From the NCBI GenBank assembly GCA_964016885.1, contig OZ024740.1:84506001-84570000 (forward strand): a DNA stretch of 64,000 nucleotides. Reading direction: 5' to 3'. This DNA comes from Eledone cirrhosa (taxonomy: Eukaryota). The translations under genes were made by a program, and so were the position numbers. The notes below the pieces were generated by a model. That model saw nothing but the letters and a program-made list of their open reading frames with translations, was not told the origin of the DNA and ran no database searches. Below are positions 9,873-57,200 of this stretch, piece after piece (position 1 is the stretch's first letter; every line of letters starts with the position of its first letter).

Positions 9873-9963
9873 TTCCTTGTTGAAAATCCAAGTATCGGCC
9901 TCCGTGGTTTACCATTCGATTAATTGGTGAAATATATTTCTTTAATGGAATATATACAGGGAA
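9873..9963 (+). ncRNA. Hammerhead, U3-A8 core
   Basis: TTCCTTG-TTGAAAA-T-CCAA...TTGG-T-GAA-ATATATTTC/tttaat/GGAATATAT-A-CAGGGAA. Confidence 0.75.
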
Positions 9964-10997
9964 GATTAATCATATTATAAGGTATCTATTTTTGAAGTTC
10001 TACTTAACTTTATTTAGTTACCTACCTAGCTATGTGTGCATACACACTTGTAAAAATTATCCCCTGTGATTGTTTCATATGTTTATTTATATGTTAATCA
10101 ATTTCTAGTTGTTATAAAATACTCGGACCTATTCATTAGAATCTTGGAGCTTATTTTACGGGTGATATGGTGCATGCCTTTCTGGCATGACACCCATAAT
10201 TTTGATTTAGATTAAATTCACTTTGATTTATCTTAATTTTGGATATATATATATATATATATATATATATATATATATATATATATATATATATATATAT
10301 ACATACACGTGAATGTGAAGTCAAAATTCACAAGGTAAAAGCAGTTAGAGCCCCAAGGATTATAGTTGAAAACTTGCTTTAGTGATGGGGAGATTCTATT
10401 TTGCAATTTCACGGATTGTAGGCATAAATGGTATTCTATTATATTAAGTGAATTGAATTACGAGAAGCACTCAAATACAAGCAAATACCTCGCTAATATA
10501 AAGCACCATGCAATACATTAATGTTTCCATGCTTTACTTTGTTTAATGGCAGAAACAACTGTTTATTTCCTTTCTAGATTTAACATTCAACATATCTAAC
10601 GGCATGACATGATATGATGCATAAATGATTTACTGGCTTTTTTTAAGGAAAACATTAGAAATTTGTTATAAATACCCAGAAAGCATTCGATGAATCTACA
10701 GATGTAGTTGCATATTCAATAAATTCTTGTGAAATATGATGTTTCCCCTTTCGCTATATCTATCCAGTATTGTACAACTACCCATGACGGTAACAGACAA
10801 TTCCTAGAACATAAAGCTAAACTACATCTATTTACAGAACATGCTGTTAAATTTTAAGCGAATTTCTATGAAGGCTATTCTAAACTATATTCACTCTATT
10901 ATATGCATAGTGAAGAGTTAGGAATATTCAACGTGTTCATATGTCTTTAATAGAAGTTTATCTGTACAGAAAATTGACCAAGTGAACAAAATAATGC

Positions 10998-11212
10998 TTT
11001 CTGATTTAGAGGCAAGGCTAGCAATTTGGAGGGAGGAGAAAATCGATTGAATCGACCCCAGTCCGTGACTGATACTTTATTTTGTCTACCCCGTAAGGAC
11101 GATAAGCAAATCTAACCTCGGTGGGATTTGAACTCAGAACGTAATGGGCCATAACTCTATGCGATGAAGCAGGGTTTTCGACGCTCCATCGATACTGCCA
11201 ATCCACCGCCCT
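10998..11212 (-). mobile_element. tRNA-derived SINE
   Basis: Reverse complement of GGCGGTGGATTGGCAGTATCG...GAGTTCAAATCC...core. Confidence 0.85.
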
Positions 11213-14200
11213 AGTTAAATAGTTAATATAATGTCGGTAGAGAAGCACGCATGGTAAATAGATGAGGAGGGGACATAGATGAAATGGAAATATTTCATGA
11301 ATTATCTAATCCTGTGGTGAGCAATCGTTTTTAGAATCGGGTCTGATGGGTTGTGTTTTTACACTGTGTGGGCCAAGCTGAATAAGAAATTAAAACTTCC
11401 ATTTCTATGGAAACAGTTTGTTATTTAAAAAACCTTAATGTTTTCCTTTTTAAATGTTTAACGTAGAATAAAACTTGTTTTGAGCTTCAATAAAATAATT
11501 GTTTACAATAGTGAAACTAATTAGTTTAAAATCTCTCCTCAGAGAAAACTTCCATTTTCTTTCTTTTTTTATGTTGTTGCCAATTAAGGATATCAATTTT
11601 TTTTTTTTATTAATTTAAAACATTAATTCATTTAAATTCAATGCAAAAATGAGACCCCTTGCAATATTAGATTATATTGTTTGCTAAACAATATTGATAA
11701 AAAAAATTTGTTTTGAATGCAACGTCACATAATCAACAACATATGCAGGCTATAATGTGCTGACCCTCCGGTTAAATTTCTGTCTGTGTGTAAAGTATAA
11801 AATAGTAGCTAATATAGAAATACAAAGAATAATAACCAAACGAACAATCTAAGTTCAGAAAAAAAGAAGAACGTATCCAATTAAAGAAATTATATAATAT
11901 AGGTGTTCACAAAAGCAAACTACCATTAAAATCATTCTGACCTCTCAGTTTTTCAATTACGAACAGATGACAGGAATACGGTATCAAACTACATATCACT
12001 GCAGTGTAACAAATACATTTGGACAAAACTTATGATGGAAAGATTTCTGAATTCATTTTGAGGTGAATAAAACTTTTACCGGGTCATCAAAAAATATTTG
12101 CTTCCACTGTTTTCGATCTTATATTCTTTTTATTTTTATTGTTTTTATTTGTTGTACTTTTCCAAAGCATAAATTGGTGCGGGAAACTATACGGACTAAA
12201 TTCCCAAACGTAAAGGTAATATCATTGCAGAGTTCCAGAGCAAGCTCCCATGTTTTAAAGGTTACATGAACAAACTACAAGCGCAATGTTATGTGTGCAA
12301 TCCAGGAATAGGCATCTCTGTGATAAAGGTGGCAATAATTTACAAACACGTCAACGTGGAACGACAGGAAACATTTCAAATAGAGAGTTCATCAACGACA
12401 TTACACGTTCATTTTTCTGTTAAACCATTTAGGAAAACTGAAGGTGTCATCATTGCTGTAGAAATGAATTATGATAGATTGTAATTATTCACAATAATTT
12501 CACGTCCAAAAATTATCCATCCGCCTTCGTTAAAAAGATTTTTTCTAATACTAGAAACTTTTTCAATCCTGAAACAAAAACAGAAAGAATTGTTAATTCC
12601 GTGCTTTCGTGGCATGTTTTTATGCTGTTCTAAATGTTTGAAAAATATTAGATAGAATGTTGCGGAATCCACTATTGCACAATACAATTTTTCTATTTCT
12701 TGTAAATACCCAGGACGTTTACTAGAATAATTATGTTTTGCATTCACAATTTATTATATTAAAAGAGCACACCTAAGCCTAACAATTATTTTTAATTGTA
12801 TCCTGGTACTTTGCAGTTTATGTTTTTTATGATGTCGTTTTTGATTATCTTGGCTACTTCTGTTTGTATGGCATCGTTCAAATGGGCGGATGTTATGTTC
12901 ATTGATTTGAAATGTTTTGCATTTGATGTCTCTCACCCAACTTATAACCATTCCTCAGGATTTTCTACTTCTTGTGCTGTTGCTGCCGCATGGGTTTCTA
13001 TTATATTTTTACTGAGTGTTTGGTGAATTCATTGTGATAGATATGAAATTTAGGTTGTGATTTTTCATACCAACAGATTTTGCCATATTAGCGAGTATCT
13101 CTTGTAGTAACAGCATTGTTGTTGTTATTACTATTATTACTATTATTAATGCTGTTTCTACTATTATTATTATTATCAGTGATTTTGTTATTATTGTTGT
13201 TATTAGTTTTACCATCTGCTCTGATCGTAAACGTCATCGTTCTGTCAGCGTACACCGTGTTTCAAACACTTCGATGAAAGTTTCTCGCTAGAATTGTTTA
13301 AAAATTCCTCAGGGAAAGGGGGTTTAACAACTTTCACTTTTTCTCGAATTTTGAGTGGCAGTTATTTTCTCCATCATCTATAGCCAGCAAAGAAAGATTT
13401 TAATGTAAAATGTCAACAACTTTATCGCTTGAAGACAGAGCACTGGAAGACAACACTGACAGTCGTGGTAGCCATAGAGCTAAAATGAACGGCTATTTTA
13501 AAGATTTTGCTTGTCAAAATGAATAAGTGGCTATTTCCGAAAACTATTTGTCAGTGAATTGTAACAAATGAGTAGAGGTTAACTCCAACAACAATAGTAA
13601 CCTTATAATGCAACACTGCAGTGAATCGGAAAGCCGTACAGGTACAACAACAGTAATAAAAGCAACAGCATTTATAACAATCACATTGACAACAACAAAA
13701 AGAAATAATAAAAAATATAGTTAAAACTATTAAAACGTTAACATCCAAAAGATCACCACACGACAGAGCAGTAACAAAAAATACAAAGACAACAAAAATA
13801 GCTACATCAATAACAATGGCAAGATCTCAGAAAGCAACAGCAACGACGACAACAGCAATACAAACTATAAGACTGAGAAATGTAGCACTTTTGTAAGAGC
13901 CAACAGCACATGAGCCGAACTGGTCACTAGCTTTAATTTTCACTTATATTTGAACAAAGTTTTCATACATATTTGAGCACATATTTCACATATATTTGAT
14001 AGCATTTTAAGAATAAGAGCTGAGTCATTTGCTGTGGGATGTTGACGACGTGTTGCTTAAATATGAAAACGTCTGTCTGGATAAAAAGTGCTTGAAAGAC
14101 GTGTAGAGTGGCATTTGATACCCTACAAAAAGACAAGAGTAGCAATCGGGGGACGTCATATTATGAAGTGAGAATAAGACGAAAACGCACTCAAATAATC

Positions 14201-55876: not shown

Positions 55877-56022
55877 TATATATACATTCATATACATATA
55901 CATTATATTTATATATATACATTCATATACATTATATATATATATGTGTGTATATATATATATATATATATATATATATATATATATATATATATATATA
56001 TATATATATATATATATACACT

Positions 56023-56305
56023 ATGTCAGGTCACCAGTTGGTGCTACTGGTAACATGTATCCCAGTACAACCTGTCTCATGGTCGGGTCGTTGGCGATTA
56101 AACTGGCAACCCCACCAAGGTTTCTTGGTGAGGAGGGTGACTTTTGACATCCTGCAGGACTAAAAACAAAACCTGTCAAAGGGCAAAGGAGCTCTTAAGA
56201 GTCAATGGCCATATAAAATCACCGGGAGAGATGACCCCTTAGCCTTTGTCAAGGCAGAATTCTAGGAGAAGGAAAACTCTGATATAACACCTGCAACCCT
56301 GATGG
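56023..56305 (+). mobile_element. Probable RTE-clade LINE 5'UTR fragment
   Basis: CTAGGAGAAGGAAAACTCTGA and AAACTGGCAACCCCACC motifs recalled from RTE 5' leaders; no ORF support. Confidence 0.4.
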
Positions 56306-56856
56306 TATCCAATGATGTTGACTTGTTCTTCTTTTTGGTAAATATCATCTTGGTTAAGAGAGTGGGACTGGCTTTGTGCAGTGCCTTTGCTCACTATAAA
56401 AGCTTCACGGCACAGGCATTGCTTTATATCTGGAGATCTCTCTGCACTTGTCCTCACATGGTACCATGGGCCCAGCACTATGTGTCAATAATTGTCACAA
56501 GTGTAGTGTTTGTACCAGAGTTTTCAAGTCGCTAGCTGGACTAAAAAGTCACACTCGTTCAGCGCTTCGGTAGGGGTTCTCCTACATGGATATAAAGTAG
56601 TGGCCGTACTCGAAAACGAGTTGGCAGCCACCATATATATATACATTATATATATATACATTATATACATATATATATACATTATATACATATATACGTT
56701 ATATATATATACATATATATATATACTTATATATATACATTATATATATATATATATATATATATATATATATATATACATTATATATATACATATATAT
56801 ACGTTATATATATATATATATATATATATATATATATATATATATATATATATATA

Positions 56857-57200
56857 TAAAGAAAAAGAGATGAAATCGAAAATGCAACTGGAGTCTTATT
56901 TTTTTTTTAAATATATATATTTATTTGGTTCCTTTACCGGTTTCGCAGTTCTTCTGCTTTTCAAAAGGTGAGTTGAGATGGAGGGTCTGTGAGAAAAACC
57001 ACAGACCCTCCATCTCAACTCACCTTTTGAAAAGCAGAAGAACTGCGAAACCGGTAAAGGAACCAAATAAATATATATATTTTTTTTTTAAATAAGACTC
57101 CAGTTACATTTTCGATTTCATCTCTTTTTCTTTATACTTTCACTCGTGTAGGACACCTCGGTTATTTTTCATTTTGTAAAAAAAACCTCACTTTCTAATA
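56857..57200 (+). mobile_element. Fold-back pLTR element
   Basis: 56857-56991 inverted to 57000-57135, then a unique tail. Confidence 0.85.
57023..57060 (+). ncRNA. Minimal hammerhead, U3-A8 core (inverted twin 56931-56968)
   Basis: CCTT-TTGAAAA-GCAG/aagaa/CTGC-GAAA-CCGG-TA-AAGG. Confidence 0.85.

Follow-up and report, generated by a model that had tools for sequence, protein, structure and literature searches.

The window analysed here is a stretch of 64,000 nt from Eledone cirrhosa (GCA_964016885.1, contig OZ024740.1, 84,506,001 to 84,570,000). A scan of the window with core positions 3 and 8 left unconstrained revealed 17 hammerhead folds, of which 10 have a C3-G8 core, 7 have a U3-A8 core, and none has a single mutant core; 40 block shuffles of the window gave a mean of 1.85 matches (maximum, 4), of which U3-A8 accounted for 0.1. 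The U3-A8 folds have type I hammerhead anatomy, with U3 at 9880, 50304, 55259, and 57027 on the plus strand and at 56964, 31874, and 31279 on the minus strand, and belong to families A, B, C, and D (Table 1). All four families have G12, A13, and A14, the A15.1-U16.1 pair, and H17. A motif termed D' has the U3-A8 pair as well, carries C13 in place of A13, and is therefore filed as a hammerhead-derived motif. An Rfam scan returned no hammerhead at E<=1; it missed all 10 canonical motifs as well as the variants and hence is uninformative.

Table 1. Hammerhead motifs and associated features (window coordinates)
Feature	Position	Strand	Details
Family A hammerhead	9871-9965	+	U3 at 9880; predicted cut after 9956 (AUA); long stem III; inside 571-nt partial tandem, 9302-10259
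Tandem twin of 9880 motif	9302-9394	+	core decayed, A6 changed
Family A hammerhead, second subfamily	50296-50391	+	U3 at 50304
Family B hammerhead	31195-31284	-	U3 at 31279; GUC site; palindromic stem III
Family B hammerhead, second unit	31790-31879	-	595 nt off; U3 at 31874
Family C hammerhead	55254-55388	+	U3 at 55259; GUC site; stems II and III long; within 605-nt partial tandem, 54808-55666
Decayed family C copy	20264-20395	-	C3 (20390) facing A8; stem I also broken beside core
Family D minimal hammerhead	57023-57060	+	U3 at 57027; GUA site; palindromic stem III; arm of inverted pair
Inverted twin of family D motif	56931-56968	-	U3 at 56964
Family D' motif	46909-46947	-	U3 46943, A8 46938, C13 46921 (GCAA for GAAA); 1.2 kb after ORF
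Family D' RT/GIY-YIG ORF	48145-49356	-	5'-truncated
Hammerhead-shaped motif	5876-5911	+	C3-G8 kept, A4 and U6; after Penelope-like ORF 3701-5455

Folds, units, and coding partners

The initial annotation had described the variant core in at least four unrelated families, with intact stems I-III and a GAAA in every case. The three-way anatomy holds, with three helices around the core and the open end in stem I (weakly for D', in which stem I has 4 A-U pairs and the MFE hairpin conceals the core), but pairing is not canonical throughout: stem II of family A begins with a U-U mismatch, stem II of family C has one unpaired A on either side, and stem I of family D has 4 pairs only. GAAA is present in A, B, C, and D; the D' copy reads GCAA, a family-wide state. 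Units A, B, C, and D have no similarity beyond simple repeats, among the matches listed, which is not in itself proof of separate origins; two further motifs are not independent, since the one at 46943 is related to that at 57027 (77% over 60 nt) and the one at 20390 belongs to the family of 55259.

The MFE structure is a three-way junction for 9871-9965 (z -3.3), the hammerhead fold for 55254-55388 (z -2.0; a consensus fold was also made for family C), and a hammerhead only in part for 50296-50391 (z -2.3). In families B and D, stem III is palindromic, and their dimers co-fold as double hammerheads; stems III of this type occur also among the C3-G8 families of the window.

Families A, B, and C form tandem units with periods of 571, 595, and 605 nt, respectively, in the window and, for B and C, spacings of about 590 nt in the genome listings. 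No consistent ORF was found within 1.5 kb at 30 loci for each family. With non-coding tandem units that contain one type I hammerhead apiece, the three families are candidates for the class of non-LTR retrozymes. Among 6 runs listed, no RNA data set carried the motifs, which speaks neither for nor against expression.

Families D and D' accompany Penelope-like elements (PLEs). Specifically, the D' motif lies in a repeat 3' of an RT and GIY-YIG ORF in 30/30 loci, with an open frame of 784 aa in full copies, and the D motif lies 3' of Neptune/Nematis-type ORFs in L203 and L062. The placement of a PLE terminal repeat, 3' of an RT and GIY-YIG ORF, is thus seen for D', for D at these two loci, and for a further U3-A8 family, G1. 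The D' ORF had been called Neptune-type; the linkage to an upstream RT/GIY-YIG ORF is borne out, and the clade, judged by motifs, fits Neptune or Nematis. The motif at 5876, absent from the initial annotation, has the A4/U6 state in 5/5 complete copies seen.

Core states across the genome

U3-A8 is the norm in all four families, with about 27,500 matches genome-wide (genome counts are pattern matches). The family consensus is U3-A8 rather than C3-G8: U3 and A8 are present in 28/28 readable cores of family A and 22/25 of family C (30 loci sampled for each), in 30/30 loci of family D, and in 99/100 of family B among the matches listed (first 100 of 6,339 in a genome pattern search). D (12,049 matches) and D' (6,065) together exceed 18,000 copies, as compared with 0 C3-G8, 99 C3-A8, and 55 U3-G8 matches in the same clade, so that single mutants are rare; such counts mostly mirror inheritance from few source copies, not per-copy selection. 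At position 7, all four bases occur in families A and C, with the 3-8 pair maintained. The D' family is young and intact, with GCAA nearly fixed: C13 is present in 98/100 among the matches listed (first 100 of 6,065), and, in the contigs from 4 runs, no other base reached 5% at position 13.

A 1.2-Mb sample chosen by position yielded 108 matches, including 65 C3-G8, 22 U3-A8, 2 C3-A8, and 1 U3-G8, as compared with 0.4, 1.6, 0.8, and 0.6, respectively, in shuffles of the sample. About 5 of the 22 U3-A8 matches look like chance folds, and U3-A8 represents roughly a fifth to a quarter of the detectable motifs. Two other classes were set aside: the A3-C8 matches (n=10) are one satellite in L306, and the A3-G8 matches are ATG repeats. 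Clustering with TA repeats masked gave 25 C3-G8 and 10 U3-A8 family-level clusters and 1 C3-A8 singleton, some singletons being chance.

Positions 3 and 8 change jointly in separate lineages, as the initial annotation had proposed. In particular, the sister families G1 (U3-A8) and G2 (C3-G8) have a repeat in common (E 2e-7) and differ by the double swap. Mapping the variant on a PLE tree (14 rows and about 200 residues from the endonuclease region, with long branches flagged and the 80-residue G2 row excluded) rejected U3-A8 carriers as one clade (p-AU 0.0001). The swap is real, and it is likely to have arisen at least twice.

Mismatched cores also occur. One sub-lineage of family C has C3-A8 in 11/13 matches, including one tandem pair. 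The C3-A8 core assigned to 20264, which is the 3' end of that motif, does have C3 facing A8, at 20390; of the two origins suggested for it, decay from U3-A8 is the most likely, and that of an evolutionary intermediate is rejected, its sampled siblings being U3-A8 in 5/5.

Interpretation of the U3-A8 core

We consider it probable that the motifs are type I hammerheads of PLE terminal repeats (D, D') and of 570-620-nt units (A, B, C), in which U3-A8 is a compensatory swap that preserves the 3-8 pair and so would keep self-cutting. The non-coding tandem units would then be mobilised by PLEs. The swap may have proceeded from C3-G8 through a short-lived mismatch to U3-A8, favoured by mutation toward A/T (the region is 36% GC), and may have been retained as source copies that still folded the core spread better. 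By analogy with known families, predicted cleavage after AUA, GUC, or GUA would trim element transcripts or free unit-length RNAs, which a Penelope RT/endonuclease would copy into TA repeats. The acting form would be a dimer for B and D and could be a monomer for A and C. D', with its added C13, is probably a weakened form tolerated by its family.

An unlikely alternative is that the motifs persist as relics, or as folds that bind protein, for which cleavage is no longer relevant, U3-A8 being one drifted core among several, founder-fixed under A/T-biased mutation. The fixation of C13 in a young, intact family, the A4/U6 motif, and the C3-A8 sub-lineage of family C are consistent with it, as is the normal in vitro insertion of a PLE with a dead hammerhead, insertion being unaffected by hammerhead mutants (PMC11167929). 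Drift of this kind is opposed by the joint change of positions 3 and 8 in separate lineages, by a maintained 3-8 pair beside a variable position 7, and by the near absence of mismatched cores at the level of family clusters. The C3-A8 sub-lineage, the GCAA family, and the odd core at 5876 suggest that weak cores can still spread. That PLEs here explore cores beyond U3-A8, with U3-A8 plus C13 and A4/U6 as working, protein-assisted cores, is doubtful. An A13-C17 contact is known from hammerhead structures, and C13 facing A17 in D' could mirror it.

The idea of the initial annotation, that U3-A8 is an adaptive setting for slower cleavage or for dependence on a dimer or an element protein, appears improbable. 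Swapping the 3-8 pair to U3-A8 slows cleavage in some contexts, and repeated origin on the tree and the double-hammerhead co-folds of B and D would suit such tuning. Yet the U3-A8 core and dimer dependence do not go together: each of families A and C folds as a monomer, and C3-G8 families in the window have palindromic stems III as well, so that dimer anatomy is not linked to the swap. G1 and G2, moreover, have the same architecture but different cores. Chance matches in A/T-rich DNA, a very remote prospect and refuted for families A-D, would accord with the A/T-rich heptamer UUGAAAA, with some isolated matches, and with the empty Rfam scan, but not with the excess over shuffles, the thousands of conserved copies located after PLE ORFs, or the equal blindness of Rfam to the canonical motifs. 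We retain the compensatory swap as the preferred reading.

Comparison with known hammerheads and retroelements

PLE hammerhead variants are reportedly the subject of Lunse et al. 2017, and 3-8 swaps that of Przybilski and Hammann 2007. The variant is not the hidden new class initially supposed: the available text of Perreault et al. 2011 (PMC3088659) describes natural C3-G8 to U3-A8 covariation in several hammerheads, active in vitro, and that of Cervera and De la Pena 2014 (PMC4209133) describes U3-A8 in PLEs, with about 1,300 matches. The variant is thus already known, also for PLEs, and the gain is modest. For C13 or GCAA we found nothing relevant in print; the supplement text of PMC4209133 omits the GAAA columns, so C13 may be in print.

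The genome offers a natural experiment that makes it testable whether PLEs need hammerhead cutting: sister families have either C3-G8 or U3-A8, the swap likely arose on two or more occasions, one sub-lineage carries a mismatch, and one family that is young and intact has a further change in its core. In a genome of this kind, descriptors restricted to CUGANGA would overlook roughly one-fifth to one-quarter of the motifs; if the non-canonical cores work, one genome would hold a natural series of active hammerheads invisible to standard descriptors.

Set beside the Neptune/Nematis and Hydra PLE clades in the available text of Craig et al. 2021 (PMC8557442), D' shares GLKF, DKG, the CX4CxxC linker, and the C-terminal GIY-YIG, and G1, which clusters with a DKT-bearing ORF, has a CxCX5C linker; assignment is from motifs alone, the tree being without reference sequences, and the motifs fit Neptune or Nematis. 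With animal non-LTR retrozymes, as presented in the accessible portions of PMC7229834 and bioRxiv 10.64898/2026.07.22.740005, families A, B, and C share non-coding tandem units, one type I hammerhead apiece, dispersed monomers and dimers, and PLEs in the same genome. Unit length here (571-622 nt) exceeds the 170-400 nt of the former and falls within the 51-972 bp of the latter; the U3-A8 core sets the units here, known from DNA alone, apart.

The Perreault hammerheads in the available text tolerate a U10.1-U11.1 mismatch, as in family A; U3-A8 is rare among them, in contrast to its share of the sample here. The closest likeness is with the Schistosoma mansoni Cercyon PLEs as covered in the available text of PMC4209133: shared are the core swap, the heptamers UUGAAAA/UUGAUAA, type I topology, a location in the terminal repeats of PLEs, more than a thousand copies, both scattered and inverted, and dimer-type anatomy. 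In contrast to those elements, stem III is long and stable in A and C, C13 is an additional change in D', and the variant occurs within one genome in two or more PLE clades as well as in three families of non-coding tandem units.

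Core states of the hammerhead families

With the bases at positions 3 and 8 unconstrained, a descriptor for type I hammerheads returned, at the lowest threshold, 17 matches in the window: 10 with C3-G8, 7 with U3-A8, and none with any of the other 14 combinations. Dinucleotide shuffles (40 shuffles, 500-nt blocks) gave a mean of 1.85 matches, 0.1 of them U3-A8, indicating that the U3-A8 pattern is real and non-random. The seven U3-A8 matches are sites that the initial annotation had listed, here assigned to families A to D; an Rfam scan of the window returned no hammerhead at E<=1, canonical or variant. 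The copy at 46.9 kb, for which an intact GAAA had been claimed, reads GCAA (C13) and belongs to a related family, D'. The copy at 20264, most likely a decayed one, has C3 opposite A8, as annotated, and is a member of family C.

The family consensus is U3-A8, and not C3-G8, in A-D and D'. Family A (1,552 genome matches to a 3'-half pattern) has U3 and A8 at 28 of 30 loci (24 read by script, 4 by eye), the other 2 being truncated; position 7 in the 24 script-read loci is A in 14, C in 6, U in 3, and G in 1. Family B (6,339 matches to a pattern with positions 3 and 8 free) shows 99 U3-A8 cores and 1 U3-G8 core in the first 100 matches. Thirty loci of family C (1,572 matches) comprise 22 U3-A8, 3 C3-A8, and 5 truncated, with all four bases occurring at position 7. 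Family D (12,049 matches) has A8 in all of the first 100 matches and U3 at 30/30 loci. The first 100 of 6,065 D' matches have U3 in 98, C3 in 2, A8 in 100, and, at position 13, C in 98, A in 1, and G in 1; no alternative letter is present in the D' core at 5% (contigs, four public runs). A looser pattern spanning D and D' jointly returned 0 C3-G8, 99 C3-A8, and 55 U3-G8 cores, to be read against ~18,000 U3-A8, a lower bound from narrower patterns than the single-mutant counts.

A genome sample of 120 position-chosen 10-kb stretches, in which motif density is several-fold below that of the window, gave 108 matches: 65 C3-G8, 22 U3-A8, 2 C3-A8, 1 U3-G8, and 18 others, 10 of them from one satellite (shuffled sample: C3-G8 0.4, U3-A8 1.6, C3-A8 0.8, U3-G8 0.6). 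About 5 of the 22 U3-A8 matches look like chance folds by appearance, and the descriptor misses 7 D' copies in the sample. Both family counts and sample show single mutants to be rarer than the double.

Positions of hammerheads and neighbouring features (window coordinates; L-numbers, sampled loci outside the window)
Feature	Location	Strand	Remark
Family A	9880, 50304		U3-A8
Family B	31279, 31874		U3-A8
Family C	55259		U3-A8
Family C, probably decayed	20264..20395		C3 at 20390
Family D	57027, 56964		U3-A8; inverted pair
Family D'	46909-46947	-	GCAA; downstream of ORF 48145-49356
Canonical hammerheads	6889, 18519, 20955, 22222, 25340, 44974, 46528, 51859, 52323, 52629		C3-G8
Additional motifs	~26105; 44136	-; +	one minimal, after ORF at 27.5-29.7 kb; one with C4
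Hammerhead-shaped motif	5876-5911	+	also L184, L209, L286
Inverted repeat	54299-54395; L082, L180		short, perfect, abutting TA runs; adjoins several unrelated insertions
Palindrome, ~950 nt	1856-2802		internal repeats; weak tRNA-like matches at 2539-2607, 2068-2132
Non-LTR retrotransposon ORFs (endonuclease, RT, zf-RVT)	58268-61291, 53163-54329	-	unrelated to hammerhead finding
Sister families G1/G2	L180:9589, L197:7095, L241-L270		Hydra-type
More U3-A8 families, absent from window	L049:9741, L108:1138, L206:6129, L044:8925, L068:5481, L189:7642		L044 copy: C3-A8
C3-A8 sub-lineage of C	L071, L079, L099, L101-L107, L109		includes tandem pair 622 nt apart
C3-A8 family D motifs	G000:C1:348863669-348911675 (genome contig)		six, ~9.6-kb spacing; probably a tandem duplication

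Genomic setting and number of origins

Penelope-like element (PLE) ORFs are plentiful in the window, which lies in a 3.0-Gb genome. Families A, B, and C occur as partial tandem arrays of non-coding units (periods 571, 595, and 605 nt, respectively), and no consistent coding partner was found within 1.5 kb at 30 loci of each. The D motif also lies downstream of RT/GIY-YIG ORFs at two loci outside the window (L203 and L062). The D' ORF family is young and intact (97-100% identity across 103 scored matches; a 784-aa open frame in many), and the downstream motif is present at 30/30 D' loci.

For the number of origins, lineage evidence outweighs copy counts, because copy counts are inherited. Two sister PLE families outside the window, G1 and G2, have homologous terminal repeats (E 2e-7). 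G1 has an intact U3-A8 core at 15/18 loci, the other 3 being decayed, all with U3; G2 has C3-G8 at 7/12 loci (4 script-read, 3 by eye), the remainder being decayed or rearranged and none having U3-A8. In a 14-row tree of ~200 C-terminal residues, which has flagged long branches and in which motifs were linked to ORFs by adjacency (one through a single decayed copy), G1 sits inside C3-G8 families bearing a Hydra-type linker. It is distant from D and D' and also from a third family of the Neptune/Nematis type, and a single clade of U3-A8 carriers is rejected (p-AU 0.0001). Together, this placement and this rejection make it likely that U3-A8 arose at least twice; because no coding partner was found for A, B, and C, the supported number stays there, and not at four.

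Folding and possible constraint on the core

The active hammerhead fold pairs position 3 with position 8, and U-A would preserve this core pair. Repeated compensatory swaps probably passed through a short-lived mismatch, assisted by A/T-biased mutation, with source copies retaining the swapped core. Both single-mutant routes look passable, given a natural PLE motif with U3-G8 listed in the PMC4209133 supplement and a family C sub-lineage with C3-A8 in 11/13 matches.

Stems III of B and D are palindromic, and both families are predicted to co-fold as double hammerheads, whereas a single hammerhead is the predicted fold of A (9880; z -3.3) and of C (z -2.0). The C consensus from 27 copies, in which the search pattern left no freedom in the 3' half, folds as a three-way junction with 2/14 pairs changed on both sides. 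With A and C single and B and D double, the predicted folds argue against the proposed tie to dimer dependence, which would not track the swap.

Selection on cleavage may be weak in some families. D' proliferated with C13 in its core, with a stem I that is weak, and with a hairpin that competes with the hammerhead fold, and its motif occurs with several loop II variants; C13 makes a second 6-nt palindrome beside the stem III palindrome. Changes of A13 cost 10-100 fold according to PMC4075628. Another PLE ORF is followed by the motif at 5876-5911, which retains C3-G8 but has positions 4 and 6 exchanged (A4, U6); all 5 complete copies agree in this. In PMC11167929, PLE insertion in vitro was unaffected by hammerhead mutants, and cleavage required the protein.

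Relation to known hammerheads

For the C13 core, no paper was found in the part of the literature covered. The suggestion of a hidden ribozyme class is not supported, as the variant is already published, and these families are further instances of it. What they add is evidence that the swap arose repeatedly, along with a set of families ready for testing, among them D' with its two core deviations. Retrozymes are likewise tandem non-coding units carrying hammerheads. PMC3088659 reports natural U3-A8 covariation, cites earlier in vitro proof of activity, and describes a U-U mismatch as in family A. U3-A8 occurs in Schistosoma Cercyon PLE hammerheads, where a U3-A8 descriptor gave ~1,300 matches and the heptamers in the supplement are those found here (PMC4209133).
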